Shown here: piece by piece, positions 16,644 to 54,196 of the stretch
Layout: each line of letters opens with the position of its first letter
How positions within the stretch are numbered: position 1 is the stretch's first letter
Assembly: GCA_027315405.1 (NCBI GenBank)
Contig: DAHUYB010000087.1
Location: 9,672-73,671 of the forward strand
Source of the DNA: Gammaproteobacteria bacterium
Lineage (GTDB): Bacteria; Pseudomonadota; Gammaproteobacteria; Natronospirales; REEB76
Length of the DNA stretch: 64,000 bases
Reading direction: 5' to 3'
Program-made: the position numbers and the translations under genes
Notes under the pieces: model-generated
Databases searched by the model: none
What the model saw: only the letters and a program-made list of their open reading frames with translations
Told to the model about the DNA's origin: nothing

Positions 16644-16654
16644 AAGTGGAAAAG

Positions 16655-34858: not shown

Positions 34859-34859
34859 G

Positions 34860-35870: not shown

Positions 35871-35894
35871 TTCCATTTTGTATTCAAAGATACT

Positions 35895-37109: not shown

Positions 37110-38404
37110 GAAATGCTGCCTCAGTCCCGGCAAGTGAAACACAGTTGCAAACCCCGGATAGCAAGCCGCTGCGCATCCTGCATATCCTGGATCATTCCGT
37201 GCCTCTGCACAGCGGCTATGCATTTCGGACATTGGCTATTCTAGCCGGTCAGCGTGATTTGGGATGGGAAACATTTCAGTTGACAAGTCCAAAACAGGGG
37301 CAGGCGAGTGAGTTACAGGAGCAAGTAGGTGAGTGGATATTTAACCGCACCCCGCTCGCAACGAGTTTTGTATCCAGAGTTCCGGTCGTAAAACACTGGC
37401 GGCTTATCCAGGCTCTTAAAGCACGGCTCCGGGATGTGGTGAACGCAACTCATCCGCATATCCTGCATGCACATTCACCGCTGCTGAATGCCTCCCCTGC
37501 ACTCACTGTTGGCCGGGAGATGGGCCTGCCGGTGGTGTATGAAATACGCGCCTTCTGGGAAGACGCGGCCGCCGATCACGGTACCGCAACTGAGTGGGGT
37601 CTGCGCTACCGGCTGACCCGGGCGTTGGAAACCCATGTCATACGTCGTGCCGATGCGGTGACTACCCTCTGCGAGGGGCTGCGTACCGATCTGATCGCGC
37701 GGGGTATTGCTGGCGAGAAAGTGACGGTGATTCCCAATGCGGTGGACATCAATCAATTTCGGGTAGGTACAACCCCTGACCGTGATCTGATGGAAAAATA
37801 CGGTATGCAAAGCGGGTTTACCTTGGGGTTTGCCGGCTCGTTCTACGCGTATGAAGGACTGGATGTGCTACTCAGGGCCATGCCGTATATTGCTGAAGCC
37901 ATTCCACAAGTACGGTTGCTGCTGGTAGGAGGCGGACCACAGGAGTCTGGGCTGAGGACACTGGCGGCAGAATTGGGCCTGAACGATATTGTGCATTTTG
38001 CCGGACGGGTGCCGCACGACGATATTGCACGCTATTACAGCGTGATGGATATCATGGTGTATCCACGACTGCCGCGCCGTCTCACAGAACTGGTCACGCC
38101 CCTGAAGCCGCTCGAGGCCATGGCACTTGGCAAGCCGGTGGTGGCCTCCGATGTGGGCGGCCACCGGGAGCTGATTTGTGACGGTAAAAATGGCTATCTT
38201 TTCCCGGCAGGGTCAACAGAGGCGCTGGCACAGTGTCTCGTCAGCTTGCTCAAAACTGGCTCGGCCTCTTGGGAAACGGCAGTGCATGCCGGAAGGAATT
38301 ATGTGGAACGCGAACGCAACTGGCCCACGAGTGTGTCGCGTTATCGTTCTGTTTATGCGCGCGTCCTGGATCGGTCAGAGCACACCGTAGAGGACCGTCG
38401 GTGA
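37106..38404 (+). CDS. glycosyltransferase family 4
   Basis: ATGA overlap with the upstream gene. ...LRILHILDHSVPLHSGYAFR... and ...TPLKPLEAMALGKPVVASDVGGHRE.... Confidence 0.85.
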   Translation: MRNAASVPASETQLQTPDSKPLRILHILDHSVPLHSGYAFRTLAILAGQRDLGWETFQLTSPKQGQASELQEQVGEWIFNRTPLATSFVSRVPVVKHWRLIQALKARLRDVVNATHPHILHAHSPLLNASPALTVGREMGLPVVYEIRAFWEDAAADHGTATEWGLRYRLTRALETHVIRRADAVTTLCEGLRTDLIARGIAGEKVTVIPNAVDINQFRVGTTPDRDLMEKYGMQSGFTLGFAGSFYAYEGLDVLLRAMPYIAEAIPQVRLLLVGGGPQESGLRTLAAELGLNDIVHFAGRVPHDDIARYYSVMDIMVYPRLPRRLTELVTPLKPLEAMALGKPVVASDVGGHRELICDGKNGYLFPAGSTEALAQCLVSLLKTGSASWETAVHAGRNYVERERNWPTSVSRYRSVYARVLDRSEHTVEDRR

Positions 38405-39606
38405 ACATGCGAGCTCCAGCGGTGGTTGTCGGGGCGGGCATCAATGGTCTGGGTGTAGCGCGCAGTCTGGCGCGTGAACGAGTACCTGCCTGGATCGTGG
38501 ATTCCGATTCTCGACAGCCGGGGATGCATACCAACGCTGCGCGGCCTTTGGTAATGCCCGCCATGCAGGGAGAGGCTTTGATTGATGGGCTCTTGGCGTT
38601 GGGGTTATCTCAATTCCATGATTTACACCCGGTGCTGATCCTGACTCAGGAAGAAAGTGTCAAGGCGGTCTCGCAATACCGCGAGGTCCTGTCACCTCAT
38701 TACCGTTTCACTCTTCCTGAGCAGTCGGTTGTGGATTCATTGCTGCACAAGGAAATGTTCCAGCGTGTGGCGGAACGGCTGGGCGCACCTATTCCGCCAC
38801 TGGTTCATATCCGCTCAATTCAGGATTTGTCTCTGTTGAATTCCGTTCAGTATCCGGTAGTGATCAAGCCGGGTGAGCGTCACGCTGGTTACAGTCATAT
38901 GTTTAAGAAGGCATACCGTATCGGCGACGTGGCCGAAGCCGAGTATCTGGTCCGGAGGATTTTGCCGGTCATGCCGGATGTGGTCGTGCAGGAATGGATC
39001 GAGGGAGCGGATTCGGACATATTCTTTTGTTTGCAATATATCGGCCACAATGGGTCTGCCGTGACATCATTCACGGGCCGCAAAATTCGTTCCTGGCCGC
39101 CACAGGTGGGCGGTACCGCTAGTTGTATGGCCGCATCCGAAGCAGCCTGTGATCTTGCCACGTTAAGCACCCAGTTTTTCCGCGCAGCAGGCGTTGCGGG
39201 TTTAGCCGGGATGGAATACAAGCACGATACCCGTACCGGCGAATTCAAAATGGTGGAACCGACCATTGGACGCACGGACTACCAGGAAGAAGTGGCGACA
39301 TTGAGCGGGGTCAACCTTCCGTATACCGCCTATTGTGCCGAGCTTGGCATACCTGGGTTGCAACCGGTGCCAACAAAGCGGCCGGTGGTATGGCGGGATC
39401 GCTTGGCAGATTCACAGTCCGCGGCAGCCCAGGGCCAAGGTGCCAAGCAAGGCTTCCCGCGCGGCTGTGTTGTTGCAGAGGCCTTGTGGCGACCGAATGA
39501 TCCCATGCCATTTCTGATGCACATGACGAGGCGTTTGAGCCGTGCATTGCATGCCCGGACCTCAAGGATGCTGAAGATACCTAAAAATGCCAAGGGCGAG
39601 TCATGA
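38401..39606 (+). CDS. ATP-grasp family ligase
   Basis: The start is GTG 38401 (GTGA overlap) or ATG 38407. ...VVVGAGINGLGVARSLA... is the pre-ATP-grasp part. ...YPVVIKPGERH..., ...VVVQEWIEGADSD... and ...EFKMVEPTIGRTD... match ATP-grasp nucleotide/Mg motifs. The track start 38233 lies inside the previous gene. Confidence 0.75.
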   Translation: MNMRAPAVVVGAGINGLGVARSLARERVPAWIVDSDSRQPGMHTNAARPLVMPAMQGEALIDGLLALGLSQFHDLHPVLILTQEESVKAVSQYREVLSPHYRFTLPEQSVVDSLLHKEMFQRVAERLGAPIPPLVHIRSIQDLSLLNSVQYPVVIKPGERHAGYSHMFKKAYRIGDVAEAEYLVRRILPVMPDVVVQEWIEGADSDIFFCLQYIGHNGSAVTSFTGRKIRSWPPQVGGTASCMAASEAACDLATLSTQFFRAAGVAGLAGMEYKHDTRTGEFKMVEPTIGRTDYQEEVATLSGVNLPYTAYCAELGIPGLQPVPTKRPVVWRDRLADSQSAAAQGQGAKQGFPRGCVVAEALWRPNDPMPFLMHMTRRLSRALHARTSRMLKIPKNAKGES

Positions 39607-40721
39607 TCGGGGTCTTAAGCACGCTGACGAAGCGGGTCAAACGGAACAAAATCGCGGCCTTGGATGCACGTGCCGCGATGGTGGCGGCGGCTGAGTGGCT
39701 GACGCGCGCCCAGGATGCCACCGGTACGGGCGGAGTCAGTGCTTACTATGACCTGAAATCACATAAGTGGGCCGCCGCTTATCCCGAAACTACCGGTTAC
39801 ATCATTCCGACATTTTTCCGTTATGCGGAGTTCTCGGGGCAAACTGAATATCGCGAGCGTGCCCTACGCATGGCCGCCTGGGAATCTGATATCCAGCTTC
39901 CTGAAGGCGGCGTTCGTGCGGGTACCATGGATGCCACTCAGGTTGTGCCCACCATATTCAATACCGGCCAAGTCATGTTTGGTTGGTTAGCCGCCTGGGA
40001 GCAGACCGGGGAACCGCGGTTCCGTGATTCACTGGTACACGCGGCGCAATGGCTGCTGGCAGCGCAGGATGCGGATGGGGCCTGGCGGCGCTTTGCCTCG
40101 CCGTTTGCCGCACATAAAGTCAATACTTATAACACCCGCGTAGCCTTCGCACTTGCCCAGGCCGGAAAAATACTGAAGAAGCTTGAATACACCGAAGCAG
40201 CAATTCGTAACATCAACTGGGCACTGACACAAATGCGGAGCAACGGCTGGCTGGAAAACAACGACCTGGAGGACAATGCGCGACCCTTGACGCATACCAT
40301 TGCCTATGCGGCTCGCGGCATACTTGAGGTGGGTCTGATCGCGAAGAATTCGGCTTTTGTGGATGCCGCCGCTCGCATCGCGCGGGCGGTCGCCGGGACA
40401 CAGCGCCGGGATGGAGCATTGCCAGGTCGTCTGGATGCCCAATGGCGGTCTGCGGCCCGCTGGAGCTGTGTCACCGGCAATGCACAGATGGCCATCATCT
40501 GGCGGCGTTTGGCACGGGAAACCGGAGATCATTTCTGGAAGGCGCACGCCGAGCAGGCAACCCGCTTCAATATTTCCGTGCAGGCGCTGTCCGTTGCCGA
40601 TGCTGGGATACGGGGGGGCATCCCTGGATCCCATCCTCTGCGAGGCGGGTACATGTCCTACCGGTTCCCGAACTGGGCCGCCAAGTTCTTCATAGATGCC
40701 GTGTTGTTGCAACTGACATAG
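39603..40721 (+). CDS. uncharacterised protein with prenyltransferase/terpene-cyclase-like (alpha/alpha) repeats
   Basis: ATGA overlap with the ATP-grasp gene. QW-like repeats recur: WLTRAQDATGTGG, WLLAAQDADGAWRRF, LTQMRSNGWLE, VAGTQRRDGALPG. No signal peptide is evident. Confidence 0.6.
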   Translation: MIGVLSTLTKRVKRNKIAALDARAAMVAAAEWLTRAQDATGTGGVSAYYDLKSHKWAAAYPETTGYIIPTFFRYAEFSGQTEYRERALRMAAWESDIQLPEGGVRAGTMDATQVVPTIFNTGQVMFGWLAAWEQTGEPRFRDSLVHAAQWLLAAQDADGAWRRFASPFAAHKVNTYNTRVAFALAQAGKILKKLEYTEAAIRNINWALTQMRSNGWLENNDLEDNARPLTHTIAYAARGILEVGLIAKNSAFVDAAARIARAVAGTQRRDGALPGRLDAQWRSAARWSCVTGNAQMAIIWRRLARETGDHFWKAHAEQATRFNISVQALSVADAGIRGGIPGSHPLRGGYMSYRFPNWAAKFFIDAVLLQLT

Positions 40722-40732
40722 CGTGTAGCAGA

Positions 40733-42031
40733 ATGCGTGATCTTCTCATTGCCTTGATTGTATTCGGATCCATTCCATTCATTCTGATGCGCCCGTATCT
40801 AGGTTTGCTGATGTGGTCCTGGTTGGGCTATATGAATCCGTATCGGTTGGCCTATGGATTTGCCTACAACTTTCCCTGGGTTGAAATCATTGCCATTGTC
40901 ACGCTCGTCGCCCTTATCTTCAGCAAGGAGAGCAAAAAGATTTCGGTTTCATCAATCAGCGTACTGTTATTCCTTTTCTTAGTCTGGACAGGTATTTCCA
41001 CAATCTTTGCGGTCAAATCGGACTCAGCCCTGCTCACAGGGGAAGAGTTTTGGAAAACTCTAACCATGGTCTTTGTTACGCTGATGCTGATAAAAAATCG
41101 TCAGCGCATGCACTGGCTGGTGTGGGTAATCGTGATTTCTCTGGGATTTTATGGCCTCAAGGGTGGGGTATTCACGGTGTTGAAGGGGGGCGCATACCAC
41201 ATATATGGGCCACCCAAGAGCTTCATTGCTGACAATAATGACTTGGCCCTGGCTCTTTGCATGACTTTGCCGCTTATAAGATATTTGCAAATTAATTCAA
41301 CATATAAAGCGGTACGTCTAGCCATGGCCCTCACCTTGATCCTTACTGGCGTAGCAATTCTTGGCACGTATTCACGTGGCGGTTTGGTTGCCTTAGTGGT
41401 TGTGAGCGGAGCTTTACTACTTAAAACTCGCCGCCGCCTCGTAATCATGATGGCAATCGTGATGGTTGGACTCACAGCCTATACTTTTATGCCGGCACAA
41501 TGGAAGGAACGTATGGATACACTCCATCATGCTGAGGAGACTGATTCCGCTCAGGAACGCATTCAGTCGTGGGAGTTCGCTGTGAACGTGGCTATCCATC
41601 ACCCGTTGGTGGGCGGCGGCTTCAACGTTTATCAAAGTGATTCCATGTGGAAGAAGTATGGACCGCAGGGTGCCATTCCACGCGCGATCCACAGCGTATA
41701 TTTCCGCGTGCTGGGCGAGCAAGGATTTCCCGGACTTATCATCTTCATAGGGCTTCTTTTCGCAAGCTGGCGGAGCTGCAGTCGTGTGAGGAAAAAAACA
41801 CGGGATTCACCTGGATGGAAATGGGCGTATGACCTCAGTTCCATGCTGCAAGTGAGCCTGGTTGCCTATGCGACGGCTGGTCTGGCCACGACATCAAGCT
41901 ATTTTGATCTTACATATCAATTAATTGCGATGTGTATTCTATTAGAAGATATCGTCATAAGTCAGATAAAAGAACCCATTGCTGATAAAGGGGTTGGTCA
42001 TGCGCCAGCTGATTTTCCCCAAAGGAGATAA
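40733..42031 (+). CDS. O-antigen-ligase/Wzy-like polymerase (exosortase-A-associated O-glycosylation ligase type)
   Basis: ATG 40733. The product starts MRDLLIALIVFGSIPFILMRPYLGLLMWSWLGYMNP and has about 10-12 TM segments. A Wzy_C-like loop reads ...GTYSRGGLVALVV.... The track ORF start 40442 overlaps the previous gene. Confidence 0.85.
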   Translation: MRDLLIALIVFGSIPFILMRPYLGLLMWSWLGYMNPYRLAYGFAYNFPWVEIIAIVTLVALIFSKESKKISVSSISVLLFLFLVWTGISTIFAVKSDSALLTGEEFWKTLTMVFVTLMLIKNRQRMHWLVWVIVISLGFYGLKGGVFTVLKGGAYHIYGPPKSFIADNNDLALALCMTLPLIRYLQINSTYKAVRLAMALTLILTGVAILGTYSRGGLVALVVVSGALLLKTRRRLVIMMAIVMVGLTAYTFMPAQWKERMDTLHHAEETDSAQERIQSWEFAVNVAIHHPLVGGGFNVYQSDSMWKKYGPQGAIPRAIHSVYFRVLGEQGFPGLIIFIGLLFASWRSCSRVRKKTRDSPGWKWAYDLSSMLQVSLVAYATAGLATTSSYFDLTYQLIAMCILLEDIVISQIKEPIADKGVGHAPADFPQRR

Positions 42032-43324: not shown

Positions 43325-44305
43325 ATGGAAAATGGATTAAGTGATTCTGGGTATTATCCGGCAGAGCATTTTATTTCCAAATCCATGGATTCTGATGCAC
43401 CCATCTTTCTTACAGGTTTTGCCCGCTCCGGAACCACTTGGGTGAATCATCTGTTTCGTGATTATTTTGATGCCGGATTTGTCAACGAAGGTCAATTCAT
43501 CGTTTCCTTCGGTTTGCGCCTGCATCGTTATGAGAATCTTAAAGAGCCCGGCAACCATAGACGGCTGATGCGGGATCTAGCCAAAGATGGATTTTTTTCA
43601 ATCTTGAGGAGAAACTACGCAATTGAAATTGACTGGGGAAGAGTTGGGGCAGTTAAACCGGAGTTTTCCGCTATCGTCCGGGAGGTGCTGCGGCAAATTG
43701 CCGAGGGATTGGGCAAACACAGAATTGGCTCCAAGTATCCCGTGTTCGGACGTTATATGGACCTTATGAATACGCTGTTTCCGGATTGCCGGGTTGTACA
43801 TGTGATACGTGACGGGCGTGACTGCGCACTGTCACATAAAAGGATGACCTGGGGTCATCAGAATACCTATTCCGCAGCCGTTCATTGGCGCGATTATTTA
43901 CGTACGCTGCGAAGTAGTGCGGAAAAGTTGCCAGGCAGATATCTGGAGATTCGTTATGAAGATCTGCTTCTAAATCCAGAGTCAACCATGCGAATTCTTG
44001 AGTATTTTGTAACCGGTACACATCAGGATTCTGCAACCAGACACTTTCTTGAGAAGCGGGGCGCACTGAAACCTAACAAGGTTGGTCAATGGCGCCGTGC
44101 AATGTCTCCACATTCACAGGCTGTTTTTGAAGCAGTTGCCGGTGATACGTTACGCGAGTATGGCTACGCACTGGTTGGTGAAAAGCATTATCTGTCGTCC
44201 TTGTCCAGAGCCGGATGCATCATACATGACAGGGTAAGCCGCGAAGCTTGGTACTGGGCAAGAAAAATCGTTCCGAAGATTCCGGAACACAAGCCATGGT
44301 CGTGA
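43325..44305 (+). CDS. sulfotransferase family protein (ST2)
   Basis: The 5'-PSB loop is IFLTGFARSGTTWVNHLF and the 3'-PB segment is VVHVIRDGRDCALSH. 326 aa. Confidence 0.8.
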   Translation: MENGLSDSGYYPAEHFISKSMDSDAPIFLTGFARSGTTWVNHLFRDYFDAGFVNEGQFIVSFGLRLHRYENLKEPGNHRRLMRDLAKDGFFSILRRNYAIEIDWGRVGAVKPEFSAIVREVLRQIAEGLGKHRIGSKYPVFGRYMDLMNTLFPDCRVVHVIRDGRDCALSHKRMTWGHQNTYSAAVHWRDYLRTLRSSAEKLPGRYLEIRYEDLLLNPESTMRILEYFVTGTHQDSATRHFLEKRGALKPNKVGQWRRAMSPHSQAVFEAVAGDTLREYGYALVGEKHYLSSLSRAGCIIHDRVSREAWYWARKIVPKIPEHKPWS

Positions 44306-44343
44306 GAGCGACAAATGTCAAGTTAGACATAGGAGAGATCACT

Positions 44344-46470
44344 GTGATAAATCGTGTAATCTGGCTTATATTGCGCCAGTTTGGATATGTGGCAGTGTTG
44401 TGTGTATTAACGAGCTGTGTGCAGACTGCTGCTGTGACGCAAACCGTAAACTCGGTTTCTGCCGGATCGAGTGATGTACCCATGGTGAAGGCGATTAACC
44501 TTTCCAACCAAAGGTTGCAGCAGGTTCCTGTTACCTTTGGGCAGCCTTTCCGTGCTGGTGCTGTACCGCGTGGTCATACGATAGTGGCTTATGCAGACGG
44601 TAAGGAGTTACCGACCCAGGCAAATATCAAGGCACGCAACCCTGACGGTTCGGCGCGTCATGCAATTCTGACTGTGCTATTGCCGACTCTGGACTCTCGA
44701 GCATCAGAAAATGTGAGTCTGCGCTCAGTCCCAGATACCGCGGTGGCAAGATCAAAAGCTCTGACGATTGAAGATGTCCTACACACCAAGTTTGATGCCG
44801 ATGTCCAATTTCAAATTGGCGGCGAACCTTGGCATCTCGATGCGAGAGTGCTACTGCAGCGCGCTTTGCGGGACGGGTCATGCAAGCCATATGGGCGTGA
44901 GTGCAATCAGTGGCTATCCGGACCATTGGTTTCAGAGTGGGTAGTCGGCGGACCTTTACTTGACGAGCAGGGCAAACCGCACCCCCATCTAGCCGTGTAC
45001 TTTGCGGTACGAGCCTATGGCCCGGTACCCGTGAGTCGCGTGCGTGTGGATGTGATCGTGGAAAACGACTGGGCCTATGCGCCGGATCCACATAATGAGC
45101 GTTACGACGGCACTATCAAAATAGGAGACCAAACGGTAGCTGCCGTCAAAGATCTCGAACACTATCGGCAGGCCCGCTGGCACAAAACGTTCCGCTGGGG
45201 CGCACCCGATCCTGTTTATGCGGAATTGAGTTCGCACTATCTGCAATATTCCCGCGCTGTTCCACGCTATGAAGATGTATACCCCTCAGAAGCGGTTTTG
45301 CGTAGGGTGCGGCAGACTTGCGCACCAATGCAGAATTGCGACCAGACCCGTTACATGGCGAATACCGGCGCACAGGACGCGATTGGCCCGTTGGCCCGCT
45401 GGAGTAGCGTCTATGTGATTGATCCGACCTACCGTGCCTATCGCTGGATGCTGGCGAACGATGATGCGCTTGGTGCCTACGGCATTCACTATCGCGATCA
45501 ACTTTCCGGTCAGCCGGTATCCGTTGAAGCGCACCCCTGTATGACGCTGTACGGTCCCGCGGAAGTCGCGCGTTGCCCTGTTCCACCCTACAAGAATGAC
45601 ATTTTCCCTCGTTGCAAGAATCAATGTAAAACGCCACTGTACCCGGATGAAGCGCATCATCCTGAACCAGCCTACGTGGCTTACCTTGTAACCGGGGATT
45701 GGTACTACCTTGAAGAATTGAAATTCTGGGCTGATTGGGTGGTATTCCATCAGAATCCAGCTTATCGGGATTACACCAAGGGGTTGATAGAAGACACCCA
45801 ACTTCGGGGCCAAGCCTGGGCATTGCGGACCTTGGGTTACGCTGCGTATATTCTTCCGGAAAATGATCCCCTGAAAAGTTATTTTAAGCGCGTGGTCGAG
45901 AATAATATTCAGTGGTATAACCAGAATTACACCGACAATCCTCGTGCGAATGCCTTGCACATTATCATCAATGGATATGCCACAGACTATACGTTTCGCG
46001 GCAAACCCCACACGGGGATGTCAACTTGGCAACAATCATACTTCAACTGGGCTGTGGGGAATCTGGCAGACCTGGGTTTTCCCGGTGCCGACAGATTGCG
46101 TAATTGGTTCGCCGTATTTCAGATCAACCTCATGACCAGTCCGGATTTTTGCTGGACTATGGCGACAACGTATATTTTGCAGGTGAGGGATTCAGCCAAA
46201 GGTCCTCTCTACGATTCACTGCATAGGGTCTATGCCAGAACGTTTCCCCAATTCGATCATGTAGCCTGCAATAGCAGGGGTGTGATGGTTGGACACCCGA
46301 AATCCCCAACCGGATATCCAGCCAGTTTCCAGGTCGGACTGGCCGCGGCTGCCGATTCCAATTTGCCTGAAGCCCGCAAGGCGTGGGCAAAATTCGCTCA
46401 AAGACTAGTTAAGCCGGATTATGCCAATGCCCCGCAATTTGCGATTATTCCGAGACACAGATCGGATTGA
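44344..46470 (+). CDS. large secreted protein of unrecognised family, predicted lipoprotein ('LpA'); paralog of 54428-57073
   Basis: GTG 44344 lies 6 nt after AGGAGA. The signal/lipobox is (M)INRVIWLILRQFGYVAVLCVLTSC. The alternative ATG 44296 overlaps ST2. Long blocks are shared with the 881-aa protein (see findings). Confidence 0.75.
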   Translation: MINRVIWLILRQFGYVAVLCVLTSCVQTAAVTQTVNSVSAGSSDVPMVKAINLSNQRLQQVPVTFGQPFRAGAVPRGHTIVAYADGKELPTQANIKARNPDGSARHAILTVLLPTLDSRASENVSLRSVPDTAVARSKALTIEDVLHTKFDADVQFQIGGEPWHLDARVLLQRALRDGSCKPYGRECNQWLSGPLVSEWVVGGPLLDEQGKPHPHLAVYFAVRAYGPVPVSRVRVDVIVENDWAYAPDPHNERYDGTIKIGDQTVAAVKDLEHYRQARWHKTFRWGAPDPVYAELSSHYLQYSRAVPRYEDVYPSEAVLRRVRQTCAPMQNCDQTRYMANTGAQDAIGPLARWSSVYVIDPTYRAYRWMLANDDALGAYGIHYRDQLSGQPVSVEAHPCMTLYGPAEVARCPVPPYKNDIFPRCKNQCKTPLYPDEAHHPEPAYVAYLVTGDWYYLEELKFWADWVVFHQNPAYRDYTKGLIEDTQLRGQAWALRTLGYAAYILPENDPLKSYFKRVVENNIQWYNQNYTDNPRANALHIIINGYATDYTFRGKPHTGMSTWQQSYFNWAVGNLADLGFPGADRLRNWFAVFQINLMTSPDFCWTMATTYILQVRDSAKGPLYDSLHRVYARTFPQFDHVACNSRGVMVGHPKSPTGYPASFQVGLAAAADSNLPEARKAWAKFAQRLVKPDYANAPQFAIIPRHRSD

Positions 46471-46551
46471 CCCCGGAATGAGAGCTGATCTTTATGGGAG
46501 AATCAGTATTACGGTAGGCATAACATGGCGGTTGATTCGCTTGGTAAACGC

Positions 46552-47559
46552 ATGAAAACCATGTTTGTGTTTACTGTAGATGTGGAATCACGCGCTCATG
46601 GTGATCCGCGCTCCGACATATTGGGGATACTTCCGGATTACGAAGAGCGCTATGGCATCGAAAAAATCATGAGTATGCTGGAAGCCTACCAGGTGCGTGG
46701 CACGTTTTTCCTGAATGTGTATGAGGCGGCAAAACATGGTGAGGTTGCCGTTGCCGGTGCTGCAAGACTGATTCATTCCCGGGGACATGATCTCGAGCTG
46801 CATAGCCATCCTCAACCCATGTACCCTCATTATGGGATGTGCCATGCACCACTTGTAAATCAGATAGCAATTCTCAACAAGGGAATATCACTACTGGAAT
46901 CATGGACAGGAAAAACCGTACTGGCCCATAGGGCGGGCGCTTTTGCCGCCAACGTCGATACCCTGCGTGCCTGCGAATCAGTCGGTCTTCTAGCGGATTG
47001 CTCGCTCTCACCGGGCAGCCTGGTTTCCGTCCCGCTCGTCCATGAGCTGGGGGTTTCGAACCTGGTTCGGCGCATCGGCAAGGTCTGGGAGATTCCTGTG
47101 ACCTATTACCATCAACTGCGCGTGGGTCGCTGGCACTCGAAGCGTATCCTGGATATCGAGGGGAGTTCACTACCTGAGATCAAGCGAGTTACACGCTGGG
47201 CGCTCCGACAAAGTCTGCCGACGGTGTGTGTTCTTATGCACAGTTTCAGCCTTTCCCGGCATGGCAAACCTAATCGGCGTGTCATCCGGCGATTGTCCGC
47301 CTTGCTCACATGGCTGCACAAATGTGATGGGATTGAGATCGGCACCATCGAGCAGGCTTGTCATCGCTTGGATCAGAATGCGATACCGAAGGTAATTTCC
47401 GGAGAACCCTCAACGGGACTCCTATTGACGTGGGGCCGGGCCTTGCTGGCATGGAACGACGGCTGGAGAAACAGGCTGGTAGCTATGACAGGAATGACCG
47501 GATTGGCGGTACTGACGCTGGTTCTTGTATATCTTTGCCTTACCCTGCTTAAGCATTAG
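46552..47559 (+). CDS. NodB-like polysaccharide deacetylase with C-terminal TM anchor
   Basis: MKTMFVFTVDVESRAHGDP..., ...RGHDLELHSHP... (a His-His metal motif), and the C-terminal hydrophobic helix LVAMTGMTGLAVLTLVLVYLCLTLL. The track start is 46525. Confidence 0.72.
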   Translation: MKTMFVFTVDVESRAHGDPRSDILGILPDYEERYGIEKIMSMLEAYQVRGTFFLNVYEAAKHGEVAVAGAARLIHSRGHDLELHSHPQPMYPHYGMCHAPLVNQIAILNKGISLLESWTGKTVLAHRAGAFAANVDTLRACESVGLLADCSLSPGSLVSVPLVHELGVSNLVRRIGKVWEIPVTYYHQLRVGRWHSKRILDIEGSSLPEIKRVTRWALRQSLPTVCVLMHSFSLSRHGKPNRRVIRRLSALLTWLHKCDGIEIGTIEQACHRLDQNAIPKVISGEPSTGLLLTWGRALLAWNDGWRNRLVAMTGMTGLAVLTLVLVYLCLTLLKH

Positions 47560-47781: not shown

Positions 47782-49266
47782 ATGACGAAAATAAAAAGTA
47801 ACCTGCGAAGAGCCCTCATTCTGTCGTTCGCACAGAAATATACAAGTCTTGCTTTCAACCTTCTCACGGTAATTATTGTGAGCCGGTTACTTACGCCCAA
47901 ACAGATCGGCGTATTTTCGGTAGCGGCTGGCCTAACCGCGCTTGCGTCAATGTTACGTACCTTTGGAGTAAGTGAGTACTTGGTGCAGGAAAAAGCATTA
48001 GATGAGGCGACAATCAACACGGCGTTTACAGTCAATCTGGTCCTCGCTTGGATCGTAGCCGGCGTACTTTTTGCAGTAAGCGGTTTGATTGGTGGCTTCT
48101 ACGGTGATCCTGGAGTTGGACAGGTCTTAAGAGTGATGAGCGTCACATTTATTCTATCTCCGTTTGGCACCACCGCATTGGCACTGTTACAGCGTGATAT
48201 GGCATTCGGTACGCTCTACAAGATTCGCCTGGGTGAAGTTTTGGTTAGGGCTGGCGTGACGATCGGTTTGGCTTTCGCCGGATTTGGTTACATGAGCATG
48301 GCCTGGGCGTCACTTGCGGCCATTATTGCCTGGATTGCAGGTTGCACTGTGTGGGGACATGCATACCGAGCACGGGGTTTAAGTTTGTCAGAATGGCGGC
48401 GCATGGTTCCATTCGGTGTCAACCGGACAGTTACAGATATTGTCATCCAGCTCGGGATGCAATCAGCGAATATCGTCGTGGGCAAGATGCTGGGATTGAC
48501 CGCGGCGGGTTTTTATTCGCGGGGTAATAGTATTGTGCAAATGTTCCGTGAAAAGGTAGTCAGTGCGATCGGTGCGGTTGCTTATCCCGCCTTTGCCAAG
48601 GAGCACCGAGAGCGGGAAGCGGCTCCTGAGCTCTTTATACGTTCTCTTGTTTATCTAACCGGCATCAGTTGGCCATTTTTTGGTTTTGCGACGCTCATGG
48701 CATTCCCGATTATCCGTACTCTTTTCGGAGACCAGTGGGACGCCGCTGTACCAGTGATGCGGTGGCTTTGTGGTGCAGCGATTGTCGGTACGCTGATATA
48801 TCAATGCAATTATTTTTTCACGGCGATTGGCCGTGTTGGGGTCGTGACGGCTGTGGAGATACAGTATCAGCTTATGAGATTGGGGCTCGCTATTCTGGCG
48901 GCTGTATATAGCATTGAAGCAGTCGCGGCTTCCCAGATATTGGTCTATGCCATCGCAGCAGTACTTTATTATCGGAAACTGACACGCTACGAATCGTTAA
49001 CTATCACCAAACTCATCACAGCACTATTTCCGAGCGGCGTGGTAACACTAACAACATGCATTATACCTGCAGTCGTTATTTTGTGGCCTGGCTTCAGATC
49101 CGGGCATTATCTTCTAGCCCTAATTGTTGCTGCTATCGGTGCGGGTCTTGGTTGGCTGATGGGGTTGATCTTGACAAACCATCCTTTGATGAGTGAAATC
49201 AAGCGTGGTGTAATTAATTCCTGCCGTTATATTCGCGGTATCAGGGCTAAGGCGACCTCAGAATGA
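47782..49266 (+). CDS. Wzx-type polysaccharide flippase (MOP superfamily)
   Basis: 494 aa with about 12-14 TM segments. The N-terminus ...LRRALILSFAQKYTSLAFNLLTVIIVSRLLTPKQIGVFSVA... is typical of PST-family flippases. Confidence 0.85.
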   Translation: MTKIKSNLRRALILSFAQKYTSLAFNLLTVIIVSRLLTPKQIGVFSVAAGLTALASMLRTFGVSEYLVQEKALDEATINTAFTVNLVLAWIVAGVLFAVSGLIGGFYGDPGVGQVLRVMSVTFILSPFGTTALALLQRDMAFGTLYKIRLGEVLVRAGVTIGLAFAGFGYMSMAWASLAAIIAWIAGCTVWGHAYRARGLSLSEWRRMVPFGVNRTVTDIVIQLGMQSANIVVGKMLGLTAAGFYSRGNSIVQMFREKVVSAIGAVAYPAFAKEHREREAAPELFIRSLVYLTGISWPFFGFATLMAFPIIRTLFGDQWDAAVPVMRWLCGAAIVGTLIYQCNYFFTAIGRVGVVTAVEIQYQLMRLGLAILAAVYSIEAVAASQILVYAIAAVLYYRKLTRYESLTITKLITALFPSGVVTLTTCIIPAVVILWPGFRSGHYLLALIVAAIGAGLGWLMGLILTNHPLMSEIKRGVINSCRYIRGIRAKATSE

Positions 49267-50150
49267 TGCTTACTATAGATGTAATAGTACGCACACTTGC
49301 GGATTCATTCAGATCCGAAATGCTGTTTCGCGCGCTGGATAGCATTCAAAATCAACACGGCATCACTGCTCGACCCATCGTCGTAGTCAATGGTGAAAGT
49401 TATGATCAGCGGACGCTGAATGCACTGAGAAACCGTCCAGGTATTCGATTTCATTATCAGCAACTGGCTTCGGCTGGTCTGGCATTTAAAGCGGGCTGTC
49501 GTCTTGTTACCGCTCCCTTTTTTGCTTTTCTGGATGACGATGATGTTTTTGTTGAAGATGTATTGCTAAAGCCCGTCATGTGGTTCGAGAACAATCCACA
49601 GTGCGATGTAGTGATCACCAACAGGTACTATGTTAAAGATAACGGCCCGGTGATTGAATTTGCCTGTCTTGCTGATCATGCTGTTCAGCCAGTATTGAGT
49701 TTGTTAGATGAGAATTGGCTTTCTGCAGGCACTGGGTTTTTCCGCACAAGCACCACTATTCCTGCTTTCATGAGCGTGGACAAAGGTCATCAAGAGTGGA
49801 CCCATCTTGCTTATCGGTTGTGTACCGAGGGCAGGCAGCTGCACTTTATGGATGTACCCACGGCACTTGTCTATGACACCCCCGGTTCCATGTCCAAGAA
49901 GATGGTGCACCAAGAGGCAGCATTGGATCTGCTGCAACTTATTAGACATGATTCCAGAATGGATATTCTGGTACACAAGAAAGCCGAGTTCAAATACCGA
50001 AACGCGCTACATGTACTGGCTATGAACTACTGGAGACTTGGGGACCACAAGCGTGCATGGTGCTGTCATCTGGCTAGCTTGCGTCCGCCCCATACCTTCA
50101 AATATATTTTTTTCACACGCAAACTGCTCTGGCCTTTTGGCACAAGCTGA
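49263..50150 (+). CDS. glycosyltransferase family 2
   Basis: ATGA overlap with wzx. ...IDVIVRTL... and ...FFAFLDDDDVF... (DxD) indicate a GT-A fold. Confidence 0.75.
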   Translation: MMLTIDVIVRTLADSFRSEMLFRALDSIQNQHGITARPIVVVNGESYDQRTLNALRNRPGIRFHYQQLASAGLAFKAGCRLVTAPFFAFLDDDDVFVEDVLLKPVMWFENNPQCDVVITNRYYVKDNGPVIEFACLADHAVQPVLSLLDENWLSAGTGFFRTSTTIPAFMSVDKGHQEWTHLAYRLCTEGRQLHFMDVPTALVYDTPGSMSKKMVHQEAALDLLQLIRHDSRMDILVHKKAEFKYRNALHVLAMNYWRLGDHKRAWCCHLASLRPPHTFKYIFFTRKLLWPFGTS

Positions 50151-50160
50151 GTCGTAATAA

Positions 50161-51393
50161 TCATGATGCATCAATTCGAGATGATGAAGACCTCATAAGG
50201 GCGTGTGAAAAGCTCCCTGCGTTCAACAGCACCGCCAGACACAACATCGCTGCGGAACGCATTGCTGCACGCCATTGATGGGTGTGCAGTGATCGCTGTA
50301 ATGTCCAAAAGATGCCACGCGCTATTGAAGGTGCTAACGATTTTGCACCGGTAGCTTTAAGTGTAAAGCTAAGATTTATGATCAGGGAGTATGGACGCGG
50401 TAGCCTCCAGGGGCCAATATCCAAGGCCTTCGATAAGATGGATTTAACCTGGCTTGTAGGTTGTTCAATTTCGTTCAGGCGATCGAGCCCGTCTTTCATA
50501 TCCATCATTGCCTCATTCGTAAGTCCTTGCCGAAACATGATGCAGCTTCTTTGAAGTAAAGCCAGCCCATGCTCAGTTTCAGTCAGGACTGGTAGGTCTG
50601 TTCCTGGTTCATGGGGAAGATAAATTGCCAGGGGACACTCATCTCTTACCAAACGAAATATCCGTTGCTGATACTGTAATTGTATCGCTGATCTTTGATG
50701 GACGCTGTGAACCTTCATCGTTGGTCCTCGAGGGCCTGGATGGTCACGTAATACAAATGTCGGTTTTTGAATATTAAGCGCTTTGAAGCGCCGTGCCAGC
50801 CTAAGTAGCATTTCACTATCCTGGGCCCTCAGCAACGTTGGGTTGAAAGGTCCTGCTTCAGCGAAACAGCGTTTTGGAATTAACATGCCCTGGAACAAGG
50901 TATTGATGCCTTCCATGCTTCGGATTAGAAACAAATCCACGGGCCACGCAGGTATAGTTTTTAAACTCCATTTGTCCTGCTGCCAGATGTCGCTCGTACC
51001 CGAATATACATAGTTAGTGCTATAAGAAAAGTCTGTCTCTGAATGGGCGGTAAGGAAATCTATGTGGCTTTGAAGGGCATCCGGCAACGCCACGTCATCG
51101 TCATCGAATATCCAGATATGGGAACTCTGAGCCAGTGGGATTCCTAAATTTAGTGCAGAGGATTTACCACGATTTTCGGTCCTGTAATAACGAATCTGTT
51201 TGTTGTAGTGTTCCGCAACTTCGGCAGTTTCATCAGTCGAACCATCATCCACGACGATGATTTCATCGGGGGGGCGAGTCTGATGCAAGAGGCTATCCAA
51301 TGCCTGCGGCAGATAGTGAGCGCGGTTGTAGGTCGCGATAACAACCGACACGCTGATAGCAATTGTTTTTGGGCTTGAGCGATTAGCCATCAT
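50161..51393 (-). CDS. glycosyltransferase family 2 (only minus-strand gene of the locus)
   Basis: ...VSVVIATYNRAHYLPQALDSLLHQTRPPDEIIVVDDGSTDET... and ...IWIFDDDDV.... It is convergent with the preceding GT2, leaving a 10-nt gap. Confidence 0.88.
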   Translation of the reverse strand: MMANRSSPKTIAISVSVVIATYNRAHYLPQALDSLLHQTRPPDEIIVVDDGSTDETAEVAEHYNKQIRYYRTENRGKSSALNLGIPLAQSSHIWIFDDDDVALPDALQSHIDFLTAHSETDFSYSTNYVYSGTSDIWQQDKWSLKTIPAWPVDLFLIRSMEGINTLFQGMLIPKRCFAEAGPFNPTLLRAQDSEMLLRLARRFKALNIQKPTFVLRDHPGPRGPTMKVHSVHQRSAIQLQYQQRIFRLVRDECPLAIYLPHEPGTDLPVLTETEHGLALLQRSCIMFRQGLTNEAMMDMKDGLDRLNEIEQPTSQVKSILSKALDIGPWRLPRPYSLIINLSFTLKATGAKSLAPSIARGIFWTLQRSLHTHQWRAAMRSAAMLCLAVLLNAGSFSHALMRSSSSRIDAS

Positions 51394-51566
51394 TGCGTAT
51401 TAAATTGTAGCGGTAGCTTATGCTAACGTATGATTATAATGTACATTAGCAGTTACTGACTCAGCACAAGATTACAGGAATGGAACTGCATTACATGTTG
51501 TGTAAACAACAGTTGCCGCCCTATGAAAGGGCATCGTTTAATTGATATTCAATCAAGCCCGATATT

Positions 51567-52427
51567 ATGATCCCTGCTATCCAATATTTTAACCTTCCAG
51601 CCGAACTCTTAACATCAGAAATTGAGGAAGAATTCTTTTCTTCGTTGAAATTACGCAATGGGACGTATAAAACGACTTTTCAGAAACGCTTCTCAGATAT
51701 AAATAAGCAGATCCTAGTACTGCTGAAAACTACTGATATAAAAGTAGATAATATACTGGATATTGGCATCTCTTCAGGGATAAGTACACTTGAACTGGTT
51801 GAGGACTTAAATTCAGCGGGCTATACAAATCATATCGTCGGTACGGATTTGCTAATGGACGCTTATATCGTGCATATATTTCCAGGTTGTTATGCACTTG
51901 TAGATAACACCGGCTATCCACTAAGATTTGATTTGTTCAAATGGAGTATCAAACCCTGGATTATAAGAACAGACTATCATAATGGTTTCTTCATTTTCCG
52001 TAAATTCATCAATCTTATATTTGTATATCGCGCAAAGAATCTGATTGCCAAATCCAAGCATGCGGATGTCCAGAAGGTGAAACTTATCACACCAAAGCTA
52101 TTAAGTCACACTAATGTGGTTATTCAGATGGGTGATATAACTAAATTTAATTATTCGTATAGAGAAAAGTTCAATTTCATAAGGGCTGCAAATATATTGA
52201 ACGTGAGTTATTTTACGAAGGCGGAATTAGTCGCAATAATTAACAATATTAAACATTATTTTACGAAGCCAAGTGGAACTTTATTGGTAGTGCGCACCCA
52301 TGAAGACGGGAGCAACCATGGCAGCTTGTTTAATATTGCTAACCATAGCAAGTGTGAAGTTATTGGGCGATTTGGAGCGGGTTCAGAGATAGAAGATATT
52401 GTACTTGCGTCAATAAATAAGCACTGA
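51567..52427 (+). CDS. putative class I SAM-dependent methyltransferase
   Basis: 286 aa in very AT-rich DNA. Motif I-like is NILDIGISSGISTLEL, the acidic end of beta-2 is IVGTDL, and later blocks are FIRAANILNV and GTLLVV. The assignment rests on motif resemblance only. Confidence 0.55.
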   Translation: MIPAIQYFNLPAELLTSEIEEEFFSSLKLRNGTYKTTFQKRFSDINKQILVLLKTTDIKVDNILDIGISSGISTLELVEDLNSAGYTNHIVGTDLLMDAYIVHIFPGCYALVDNTGYPLRFDLFKWSIKPWIIRTDYHNGFFIFRKFINLIFVYRAKNLIAKSKHADVQKVKLITPKLLSHTNVVIQMGDITKFNYSYREKFNFIRAANILNVSYFTKAELVAIINNIKHYFTKPSGTLLVVRTHEDGSNHGSLFNIANHSKCEVIGRFGAGSEIEDIVLASINKH

Positions 52428-52548
52428 CAAATTTTATTTAACCTTACATTCCCAAGGTGAATATGAACGGATTGGAAGCGCGGATTATAGATTCCCTTGG
52501 TTAAAGCCGGTGGAATCTATAAAGATGCATTAGTATTCGGAGACTGAA

Positions 52549-53199
52549 ATGCAAGCAGATGTCCATTCTAGGCAACTGATTATCGGATGTGGAACAGGTA
52601 GATGTGGCACTGTATCTTTGATGCAGTTTTTGAATAGCCAAGTGGATGTTTCCATACTCCATGAAGGGCTGACCGCCGATAAAATCCACCACCTCATCCC
52701 ATGGTATAAAGGGGAAACTCAGCTGTGGTCTTGGATGATTGAACTTGAGAAATTGTCAAACGGAGCAAGATGGTACGGGGATATCGGTTTTTACTATCTC
52801 CCTTATCTTCCGAAGATATTTGACCGTTATCCAAAATCACGTGCCATCTGCCTCGAACGGCGCAAGAAGGCAGTGATCCAAAGTTTCCTTAAAAAAACGA
52901 CTGGAAGGAATCACTGGTACATGCATAAGGGCGTAGGTTGGAAAGAGGATGATGAATGGGATAACACTTTTCCTTACTATGCAGAGCTGAACAAATCCAA
53001 GGCCATTGGTTTATATTGGGAGCAATATCACAGTACAGCTTTGGAATATTGCGCACTGTTTCCGGATCAGTTTATGTTGGTGCCTACATCGGCACTGAAT
53101 ACGACAAAGGGCCGACTGAAGATATTAGGGTTTATCGGCTACGATAGAGAAGCCATGCTTGATGGGCAGTTCCGAGCGAATAACATCCGCCCTAAATGA
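52549..53199 (+). CDS. hypothetical protein, possibly a divergent sulfotransferase-fold enzyme (ST3-like)
   Basis: 216 aa. The N-terminal P-loop-like segment LIIGCGTGRCGTVSLMQFL sits where the PSB loop would be. AICLERRKKAVIQSF resembles an R-x7-S 3'-PB segment. The similarity is weak and motif-level only. Confidence 0.45.
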   Translation: MQADVHSRQLIIGCGTGRCGTVSLMQFLNSQVDVSILHEGLTADKIHHLIPWYKGETQLWSWMIELEKLSNGARWYGDIGFYYLPYLPKIFDRYPKSRAICLERRKKAVIQSFLKKTTGRNHWYMHKGVGWKEDDEWDNTFPYYAELNKSKAIGLYWEQYHSTALEYCALFPDQFMLVPTSALNTTKGRLKILGFIGYDREAMLDGQFRANNIRPK

Positions 53200-53306
53200 T
53201 GGGGCTTGATTGTTTATGGTCTTGAAGATTACGGAATTCTTAAGGTGGTCCACCTGATATCTGATCGTGGTGCTATGTCAGATTTGATACTCATTCGGGA
53301 TATGAA

Positions 53307-53996
53307 ATGATATTGCTGATCACGCAAGTGATGATATTGTGTTTTCTAATTATTTCTGTAGCGCTTTGGGGAGGGTATTTTCCTCATCCTTCCCCCTTAA
53401 TTCGACGTTGGTTGCCGCCACGTAAGCGCTGGCCTGAAGCGCAGATTCGGCGATGGCTGAAGACGGGGAAATTTCAGCGGGCATTTCTGAATTATTTTTA
53501 TCGTGATCCAGAGCGCACACCACCTCTCGGCAACAGCATTCTCGCTCCCGCTGACGGGGCGGTAACTAGTGTTGAGGTGCGCGACGGAGTGCGCTATCTG
53601 GTGATTGCACTCAGTTTCTGGGACATGCATGTACAACGCAGCCCCGTGTCCGGCAGAGTGGTCAAAGTGGAGTCACATGGAAGTGATTTTATGGACGGCG
53701 AAGGACGGAAATTCGCTTTTCTCAGAGAGAAACCCTGCCCGGTACAGAAGCGTGTGGTTATTGCCACGAGTGTGGGAGAAATTGCGGTGCGGCTGATTAC
53801 CAGTCTTGCAGCGCGTCGTATTGAAGTCTGGGTGCGGGAAGGGGGGAGACTTGTGCGTGGACAGAGAATCGGCCGGATTTTGCTGGGCAGCACCGTGGTG
53901 CTTGAGCTACCTGCAACCATAAACCTTAGCGTACAAGTGGGTGAGCGTGTTAAAGCGGGTGAAACCGTTGTTGCACAGGAAATGATCTCAGTATGA
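53307..53996 (+). CDS. phosphatidylserine decarboxylase family protein (short, membrane-anchored type)
   Basis: 229 aa with an N-terminal TM segment. ...ILAPADGAVTSVE..., ...WDMHVQRSPVSGRV... and ...GQRIGRILLGSTVVLELP... are present. The last contains the LGST self-cleavage motif of pyruvoyl PSDs. Confidence 0.75.
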   Translation: MILLITQVMILCFLIISVALWGGYFPHPSPLIRRWLPPRKRWPEAQIRRWLKTGKFQRAFLNYFYRDPERTPPLGNSILAPADGAVTSVEVRDGVRYLVIALSFWDMHVQRSPVSGRVVKVESHGSDFMDGEGRKFAFLREKPCPVQKRVVIATSVGEIAVRLITSLAARRIEVWVREGGRLVRGQRIGRILLGSTVVLELPATINLSVQVGERVKAGETVVAQEMISV

Positions 53997-54196
53997 ACGC
54001 ATTCTGGTGGACATCCGGGCATCTGGGTTGGGGCATTTTTGCACTGATCGCGTTTACGGGAATATGGTGGTTGTTGTTCGATTTGTGCTGGCGCTTGGTT
54101 ACCATCAGGATAAACCGGCTCTTGACCGTGATGGGCATAGGATGGTTGGTTGGCGTTGCCTGTATTTTACTGGGTTTCTATGTGGCTGGCTGGTAA
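53993..54196 (+). CDS. small two-TM membrane protein, translationally coupled to the PSD-like gene
   Basis: ATGA overlap with the upstream gene. 67 aa, Trp-rich, with two hydrophobic helices: GWGIFALIAFTGIWWLLF and VMGIGWLVGVACILLGFYVAGW. Confidence 0.6.
   Translation: MNAFWWTSGHLGWGIFALIAFTGIWWLLFDLCWRLVTIRINRLLTVMGIGWLVGVACILLGFYVAGW

Follow-up and report, generated by a model that had tools for sequence, protein, structure and literature searches.

What does a large exported protein, placed among exopolysaccharide (EPS) genes and resembling no characterised enzyme in sequence beyond its N-terminal barrel, do to a polysaccharide? The question is raised by an open reading frame at 44344-46470, here called LpA (copy 1), in a 64,000-nucleotide stretch (the window) of contig DAHUYB010000087.1 from a Gammaproteobacteria bacterium. 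A paralog, copy 2, is encoded at 54428-57073. LpA is part of a canonical XrtA/PEP-CTERM exopolysaccharide locus; XrtA is encoded upstream of it and the PrsK/PrsR pair downstream. Its export signals, predicted fold, paralogy, locus membership and conservation, as well as the existence of phage-borne copies, are directly supported. With somewhat better than even confidence, we propose that LpA is an exported depolymerase of the acidic EPS made by its own locus and, among depolymerases, we lean at least modestly towards a lyase rather than a hydrolase. LpA is best described as representing a new, large, uncharacterised family of a known functional kind, the glycanases and lyases of EPS loci.

Export signals and predicted fold of LpA

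The widest open frame of LpA runs on the forward strand from 44248 to 46470 and codes for 740 residues counted from the first TTG (44248). An ATG at 44296, the start chosen in public gene calls (P0001), gives 724 residues, and a GTG at 44344 gives 708. The GTG had been preferred in a preliminary description of this DNA on account of a Shine-Dalgarno sequence, and an AGGAG motif is indeed found 8 nt upstream of it. From this start the N-terminus reads MINRVIWLILRQFGYVAVLCVLTS-C25-VQT, with two basic residues, a hydrophobic core and the lipobox LTSC. The translation thus bears out the lipoprotein signal proposed earlier, and the general pattern, [LVI][ASTVI][GAS]C after a basic n-region and a hydrophobic core, is found as MINRVIWLILRQFGYVAVLCV-LTSC25. 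In nearly all close orthologs the signal region at the N-terminus contains L[TAS][SGA]C, with the cysteine at about residue 25-50 of the called proteins. Because the residue at position +2 is Val and not Asp (the E. coli Lol rule), LpA is probably anchored in the outer membrane. A PEP-CTERM tail, as carried by XrtA substrates, was sought in LpA and is not present; the protein ends in ...QFAIIPRHRSD without a transmembrane tail. Signal peptides of the ordinary Sec type are found in other clades of the family, and a type IX secretion system (T9SS) sorting domain in one distant member; the members of about 900 residues, copy 2 among them, finish with a Gly-rich stretch, followed by a transmembrane helix and an Arg cluster. 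The occurrence of lipobox, Sec, GlyGly-CTERM-like or T9SS signals across the relatives suggests that the module is consistently extracytoplasmic. The cysteines conserved in the family alignments (C180, C187, C424, C603 and C642) would fit a disulfide-bonded extracytoplasmic protein.

We used two alignments, A1, with 56 family members at 41-83% identity to LpA, and A3, a broader one that covers 31-54% identity and to which representatives of 50%-identity clusters were added. An AlphaFold2 model of LpA built on A1 has a mean predicted local distance difference test score (pLDDT) of 90.5 and a predicted template-modelling (TM) score of 0.89. It consists of a signal helix (residues 2-23), a disordered linker (22-41), a beta barrel, a second all-beta domain and a mostly helical domain (296-708), in agreement with the beta-rich N-terminal and helical C-terminal halves expected from the preliminary description. 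Residues 55-105, within the barrel, match Pfam family PF19501 (PcRGLX_1st) with 23.1 bits against a cut-off of 22.1; copy 2 reaches 20.0 bits, under the same cut-off. PF19501 was found in 48 of the 56 members of A1 (best E 4.1e-8). It was the only family to recur when these members were searched against Pfam at E up to 0.1, and no lyase, hydrolase or epimerase family was among the matches; a heparinase II/III-like, an alginate-lyase or a PL8-type identity for LpA thus has no Pfam support across the 56 proteins. No NCBIfam model matches LpA, the only near-threshold match being the C-terminal tail of copy 2. Searches of PDB sequences, by phmmer with LpA and with the A1 and A3 profiles, gave nothing related at E up to 10; the matches obtained (a chemotaxis transducer, an RNA polymerase subunit and ferritin, E 1.3-1.9) are at chance level. 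The earlier statement that the family cannot be placed still stands, since Pfam reaches only about 50 N-terminal residues of LpA and neither an NCBIfam model nor a related PDB sequence was found. The RIFT barrel, like the size of the family and its phage copies, did not figure in that description, and a literature search for PF19501, PcRGLX-like proteins and the RIFT barrel returned nothing relevant.

The best whole-chain match of the model in the PDB, by Foldseek, is the polysaccharide lyase (PL) of family PL26 (5xqj, 5xqg and 5xq3; E 5e-6, probability 1.0), with both proteins spanned. It is followed by the beta domains of glycoside hydrolase (GH) family GH38 and by toroid enzymes of GH78, GH88 (1vd5) and GH105, a cellobiose 2-epimerase and the lyase 5noa; GH76 and GH116 are likewise among the fold matches. 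The C-terminal domain modelled alone was poorer (pLDDT 72), and all its leading matches were six-hairpin (alpha/alpha)6 enzymes at E 9.5e-3 or worse. Lyase 5noa and the GH88 unsaturated glucuronyl hydrolases headed this list (E about 1e-2, TM 0.35-0.43), with GH105, GH76 and cellobiose 2-epimerase also present; the epimerases 3wkf and 5zhb matched the toroid with TM 0.37-0.44. The preliminary description had suggested a carbohydrate-active enzyme (CAZyme) made of a beta-sandwich and a toroid, and had named lyase, hydrolase and epimerase as its possible activities. The architecture and the CAZyme neighbours stood; the activity is putative, and all structural likenesses are weak (TM about 0.22-0.43).

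PcRGLX of Penicillium chrysogenum is described, in the part of PMC13501991 that cites Kunishige et al. (2018), as a PL26 exo-rhamnogalacturonan lyase (EC 4.2.2.24; PDB 5XQ3, 5XQG and 5XQJ). Like LpA, it is secreted and combines beta domains with a helical toroid, and its N-terminal RIFT barrel is recognisably homologous to that of LpA (PF19501). In contrast, neither sequence nor profile searches linked the LpA family to the PL26 chains, even at E = 10, and, barrel aside, the family has no Pfam model; moreover, PL26 comprises catabolic pectin enzymes of fungi and saprophytic bacteria, whereas LpA lies in an EPS-biosynthesis locus. Assignment of LpA to PL26 was rejected, as these searches gave no sequence similarity between its presumed catalytic module and that family. 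The model suggests that PcRGLX is the closest characterised structural relative of LpA, a distant one. The six-hairpin uronic-acid enzymes that best match the C-terminal domain are BACCELL_00875 (5NOA), which we take to be a PL27 lyase, and the GH88/GH105 proteins 1VD5, 4Q88, 3WIW, 4WU0 and 1NC5. They differ from LpA in being single-domain proteins of about 350-400 residues without RIFT barrel and beta-sandwich, and the matches have E of about 1e-2 to 1e-1, TM 0.3-0.43 and 10-14% identity.

About 45 positions are invariant in A1. Those strictly invariant in A3 are F69, Q92, S103, L191, G193, R223, E240, Y254, R278, G342, R384, H438, Y447, G451, R488, W492, R495, P505, C603, C642 and P703. The polar residues among them are five Arg, one His, two Tyr and one each of Glu, Gln and Ser, in addition to a conserved Cys pair. 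The central domain contributes R223, E240, Y254 and R278 and contains the conserved pair C180/C187; the toroid-like domain contributes R384, H438, Y447, R488, W492, R495, C603 and C642. The acidic residues of the toroid (D362, D385, D452, E457, E458 and D506) are kept at 90% or more in A3, not strictly. Where toroid-fold lyases (for example PL5 and PL8) act on an anionic substrate by beta-elimination, the invariant residues are expected to be rich in Arg and to include His and Tyr. Because the invariant His, Tyr and five Arg of LpA match this expectation, lyase chemistry is favoured.

The paralog, the family and its phage-borne members

By BLASTP, LpA and copy 2 share 299 identities over 728 positions (41%; 547 bits, E = 0.0), far beyond chance, so that the two are copies of one family, as first thought. 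All the blocks noted at the outset as common to both proteins lie in this alignment: VTFGQ.F, NPDGS.RHA.LT, CN.WLSGPLVSEW.VGGP and VRV.V..ENDWAY, as well as NTGAQD.IGPL.RW..., AHHP......Y.VTGD.YYLEE, RG.AW..R..G.AAY and GLAAAA.SNLP.A..AW..F. The additional C-terminal region of copy 2 consists of a Thr/Ser-rich segment, a Pro-rich linker and a GlyGly-CTERM-like tail (residues 857-881); the C-terminus, at 56996-57070 of the window, reads GAGGGAMSWLALVFLMTVAGWARAKRR. The tail scored 15.2 bits with the GlyGly_CTERM model TIGR03501, under the cut-off of 15.5. It resembles the rhombosortase signal GlyGly-CTERM and not PEP-CTERM, despite the XrtA locus, and many relatives of about 900 residues have a tail of the same type (P0079, P0085, P0086, P0092 and P0120). 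Both paralogs are present in at least nine genomes (for example, L001/L022 and L003/L024), in seven of which they are on one contig (for example, L006/L047, L008/L046 and L010/L012).

To see relatives in their genomic context we scanned one genome per GTDB species, which gave 228 stretches that encode them, and retrieved 75 loci; the locus proteins of the window were compared with these loci and their 10-kb flanks by tblastn. The loci come from Rhodanobacter and other Rhodanobacteraceae, Salinisphaera, Oleiagrimonas, Dokdonella, Acidiferrobacteraceae, Massilia, Telluria, Noviherbaspirillum, Rhizobacter and one metagenome-assembled genome of Polyangiaceae. Around the copy-1 orthologs (17 loci) the gene order is stp3, the counterparts of the genes at 38233 and 39603, PEP_O_lig_1, a GT4 glycosyltransferase (GT) and then the ortholog, usually followed by the flippase. 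The copy-2 orthologs (44 loci) typically have WecB, PrsK/PrsR and the phosphatidylserine-decarboxylase-like gene as neighbours, and in Massilia-type loci the family gene adjoins TviB/TviC and EpsB_2. The synteny of the locus is conserved across gamma- and betaproteobacteria. As to xrtA, co-occurrence with which had been put forward earlier as a check, linkage was seen: an XrtA-system marker lies within 10 kb in 48 of the 69 loci of at least 12 kb, and XrtA is present in the window's own locus. The remaining loci have other EPS genes (7) or none (14). Two of these 14 were inspected, from Salinisphaera aquimarina (L017) and Massilia terrae (L068). Each is an additional, orphan copy surrounded by unrelated housekeeping genes (DEAD-box helicase, fumarase, LysR regulators, a major facilitator superfamily transporter), with no EPS locus nearby.

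An exhaustive HMMER search with A1 of 1.84 billion representative proteins (50%-identity clusters) gave 4,790 matches at E 1e-3, 3,618 at 1e-10 and 1,999 at 1e-30. Each of the top 150 exceeds 535 bits, and in most the match extends over almost the entire module. Many members are multidomain proteins of 1,000-2,500 residues, in which the module is joined to Ig-like/He_PIG, PKD, Big_9, Laminin_G_3, fn3, CHB_HEX_C_1, Fn3_assoc or PG_binding_1 domains, Kelch propellers, a beta-helix or a T9SS tail, partners that appear typical of secreted glycan-active proteins. The family is not confined to XrtA loci. Downstream of one distant member, P0136, come a deacetylase and a DUF5935+Wzy_C protein; another, P0194, lies among a flippase, a DUF5935+Wzy_C protein, GT4s, an AsnB-type amidotransferase, a sulfatase and a deacetylase. 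From these two contexts, the tie of the family to Wzx/Wzy EPS cassettes reaches well beyond XrtA-bearing proteobacteria.

Full-length members are also encoded by phages. P0267 (803 residues; L081, 5532-7943) matches the whole module, and its gene is directly 3' of terminase, portal, protease and major capsid genes. A tblastn search of a phage collection detected gp39 of EBPR siphovirus 1 (L082, JF412302.1, 7152-9491), like P0267 annotated as hypothetical, which aligned with A1 over 600 columns in hhalign (probability 100, E 2e-42). It keeps Q92, S103, R223, E240, Y254, R278, R384, H438, Y447, G451, R488, W492 and R495. The following gene is annotated as a glycosyl hydrolase; Pfam detects only fn3 there. 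In BFVD, Foldseek matched two further phage proteins, both uncharacterised, one with E 3.8e-18 and TM 0.69 on the target and the other with E 1.3e-9. It is well established that phages use polysaccharide-degrading enzymes of their own to pass extracellular polysaccharide (PMC3097231, a paper that does not discuss gp39), and on this ground capture of the intact module by phages seems to favour a degradative role over biosynthetic tailoring or scaffolding. The phage-encoded, full-length members of the family recall the tailspike and tail-fibre depolymerases of phages. Most known phage depolymerases are beta-helix trimers.

Depolymerase, tailoring enzyme or scaffold

The locus encodes TviB/TviC-like enzymes for UDP-GlcNAcA and UDP-GalNAcA synthesis, an AsnB-type amidotransferase, three sulfotransferases and two deacetylases, from which its polymer is predicted to be acidic, N-acetylamino-uronic, partly amidated, deacetylated and sulfated. 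A sulfated amino-uronic exopolysaccharide would be unusual for proteobacteria. We propose that LpA, lipid-anchored and probably at the outer membrane, would cut this acidic polymer in the periplasm or at the surface, which may serve to trim chains, to cap their length or to remove stray polymer. The chemistry would be beta-elimination at a uronic acid, with the H438/Y447 pair as candidate base and acid, and R223, R278, R384, R488 and R495 would hold and neutralise carboxylate or sulfate groups. In support, the isolated toroid best matches enzymes acting on uronic-acid glycosides (5noa, GH88/GH105). A degradative role is supported by the phage-encoded full-length members, the orphan copies outside EPS loci and the fusion partners. 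Several points weigh against this proposal. Catalysis by LpA, the EPS of its own locus as the substrate and a lyase-type mechanism are what we infer rather than what was observed, and in Wzx/Wzy-type pathways a glycanase is not strictly needed. The toroid, the presumed catalytic domain, has no sequence match in Pfam, NCBIfam or the PDB. The structural likeness to PL26 is weak (TM 0.22-0.31, about 10% identity, root-mean-square deviation of about 20 A over the whole chain), as is the likeness to toroid enzymes (TM up to about 0.43, E about 1e-2). Given the highly conserved acidic residues of the toroid, a hydrolase mechanism is possible. Finally, PHROGs has no family for LpA, copy 2 or the copy in phage context; for the phage copies, a place in the virion or tail is putative.

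LpA could have the same depolymerase role as a glycoside hydrolase with carboxylate catalysts, which we judge unlikely, if well worth considering. The (alpha/alpha)6 six-hairpin fold is mainly one of glycoside hydrolases, with GH88, GH105, GH76, GH116 and GH78 all among the fold matches; six acidic residues of the toroid are highly conserved, and the phage gene for gp39 adjoins one annotated as a glycosyl hydrolase. However, unlike the His, the Tyr and the five Arg, none of these acidic residues is strictly invariant in A3, and a lyase family is indicated both by the top fold match over the whole chain and by the sole Pfam match. It is improbable, in our view, that LpA modifies the polymer without cutting it, for example as a C5-epimerase of uronic or amino-uronic residues, with the two paralogs performing different steps. 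Such an enzyme would abstract a proton as a lyase does and then re-protonate the residue, so that the invariant His, Tyr and Arg would suit it as well. Folds of the AGE/cellobiose 2-epimerase type (3wkf and 5zhb) are among the toroid matches, the locus is rich in tailoring functions, and the retention of both paralogs together suggests that they have separate functions. Yet phage-borne full-length copies and orphan copies are hard to square with biosynthetic tailoring, and fusions to T9SS tails and lectin-type domains are typical of secreted degradative enzymes.

We regard as highly improbable that LpA is a non-catalytic lipoprotein with a degenerate enzyme fold, binding polysaccharide or serving as a scaffold in the export or assembly machinery. 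Its catalytic residues are only putative, its likeness to every characterised enzyme is weak, and its gene is close to Wzy-like, flippase and export genes. Against this, about 20 positions are invariant at 31-54% identity, including the His/Tyr/Arg cluster that the phage homologs keep, and the module is the only large domain of secreted multidomain proteins and is found in phages, which fits an enzyme better. In a bolder view, distinctly unlikely in our estimation, the module, with its about 4,800 clusters at 50% identity, would be the founder of a new family of carbohydrate-active enzymes that has catalytic machinery of its own and is tied to PL26 only by the N-terminal barrel. The differently anchored paralogs would then be obligatory processing enzymes of the XrtA system, not simple depolymerases: polymer-level epimerases, or transglycosylating or trimming enzymes that shape a sulfated amino-uronic floc polysaccharide. 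Phages would have captured the module to breach the matrix.

A depolymerase of the polymer of its own locus, the role that we favour for LpA, has counterparts in EPS loci that encode glycanases or lyases: AlgL (alginate), PslG, BcsZ, PelA, PgaB and ExoK/ExsH. Like LpA, for which the role is a proposed one, they are exported, are encoded among EPS genes and have their own product as the expected target; PgaB is also an outer-membrane lipoprotein, as predicted for LpA. Unlike in those systems, two differently anchored paralogs are conserved together in the LpA locus; moreover, none of these proteins is related to LpA in sequence and none is among its fold matches. Many bacteria of the environment and of wastewater owe their flocs and biofilms to XrtA/PEP-CTERM loci. 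LpA, conserved in such loci, exported and probably catalytic, gives a concrete handle on the chemistry and processing of their polysaccharides. An activity for the family would annotate a large block of 'hypothetical' proteins, in thousands of clusters across phyla, and a new CAZy family, of use in breaking up flocs or biofilms, could result. We see LpA as a useful testable lead for CAZyme and biofilm specialists, not as a surprise.

The XrtA/PEP-CTERM locus around LpA

The features of the window are collected in Table 1. XrtA, EpsB_2, the export protein, ChnLen, FemAB, polyde, stp1, stp2, stp3, PEP_O_lig_1, the amidotransferase, PrsK and PrsR all score above their family cut-offs.

Table 1. 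Features of LpA, its paralog and the surrounding locus (positions in the window; a single number is a gene start)
Feature	Position	Strand	Basis or remark
TviB- and TviC-like genes	15366, 16631 (span 15366-17686)
EpsB_2 priming transferase	18674
Export protein	20092
Chain-length determinant (ChnLen)	20773
Tyrosine kinase (TyrKin homolog)	22080		just under family cut-off
Outer-membrane protein	23137
ATPase	24683		just under family cut-off
XrtA-system deacetylase (polyde)	25903
FemAB	26824
stp1	27863
Exosortase A, XrtA with fused EpsI domain	29134-30711	+	TIGR03109, 289.8 bits (cut-off 208); TIGR02914
stp2	30681
XrtA amidotransferase (AsnB-type)	31908
Sulfotransferase	33860-34858
Epimerase	34860
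GT4	35895
stp3	37106
Unassigned protein	38233-39606		weak ATP-grasp/carbamoyl-phosphate-synthase-like match
Unassigned 372-residue protein	39603-40721		no signal peptide; weak Pec_lyase (pectate lyase, PL10) and squalene-hopene cyclase C-terminal matches
PEP_O_lig_1 (Wzy_C + DUF5935)	40442-42031
GT4	41979
Sulfotransferase	43325-44305
Shine-Dalgarno-like AGGAG	44331-44335	+	8 nt 5' of GTG 44344; read from sequence
LpA	44344
LpA lipoprotein signal peptide, residues 1-25	44344-44418	+	translation; lipobox L22-T23-S24-C25, +2 residue Val
LpA N-terminal RIFT-barrel domain, residues ~47-130	44482-44733	+	PF19501; AlphaFold2 strands 47-130; VTFGQ and NPDGSxRHA motifs
LpA central all-beta (sandwich-like) domain, residues ~131-295	44734-45228	+	AlphaFold2 strands 152-295, pLDDT above 90
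LpA C-terminal helical toroid-like domain, residues 296-708, presumed catalytic	45229-46467	+	AlphaFold2 helices; Foldseek
Deacetylase (Polysacc_deac_1)	46525-47559
MOP flippase	47782
GT2s	49263, 50161
Sulfotransferase	52549-53199
Phosphatidylserine-decarboxylase-like gene	53307-53996
Copy 2 paralog, 881 residues	54428-57073	+	BLASTP to LpA; same three-domain module and extra C-terminal region
WecB	57569
PrsK histidine kinase (58855) and PrsR sigma-54 response regulator (60933)	58855-62300	+	TIGR02916, 709.7 bits; TIGR02915, 680.2 bits

The neighbours of LpA are, as initially described, a sulfotransferase upstream and a deacetylase downstream, with gaps of 38 and 54 nt. A promoter or terminator of its own was sought for LpA, and the counts of such sites were at or below shuffle expectation, with no excess that would separate it from its neighbours. 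Because of the short gaps and this lack of enrichment, LpA is likely to be co-transcribed with its neighbours. The downstream deacetylase is without an N-terminal signal. A conserved pair of LpA with this deacetylase, of the PelA/PgaB kind, was considered and rejected: a clear ortholog of the deacetylase is found 3' of the gene in one of the 75 loci, and a second has a weaker match (31%). Deacetylases do occur near the distant members P0136 and P0194.

Some minor observations concern other genes of the locus. The weak matches of the 39603-40721 protein and its lack of a signal peptide suggest a cytoplasmic helical-toroid protein, and its gene and the one at 38233 keep their position upstream of copy-1 orthologs in 14-15 loci. 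The PEP_O_lig_1 frame overlaps the preceding gene by about 280 nt and is matched by the family model only from residue 99; its true start is probably near 40736. The phosphatidylserine-decarboxylase-like gene is found near copy-2 orthologs in 28 loci, mostly at 58-76% identity and in three at 45-53%. With the NCBIfam model 'protein sorting system archaetidylserine decarboxylase' it scored 105.6 bits against a cut-off of 240, and possibly it helps to make a lipid anchor for sorted proteins. Finally, at 34001-36000 and 48001-54000 the G+C content drops to 0.45-0.49; it is 0.57-0.64 in the conserved XrtA-core segments and at the window's 5' end. Judging from this dip, the part of the locus for glycosyltransferases and tailoring would be a variable cassette, possibly exchanged horizontally.

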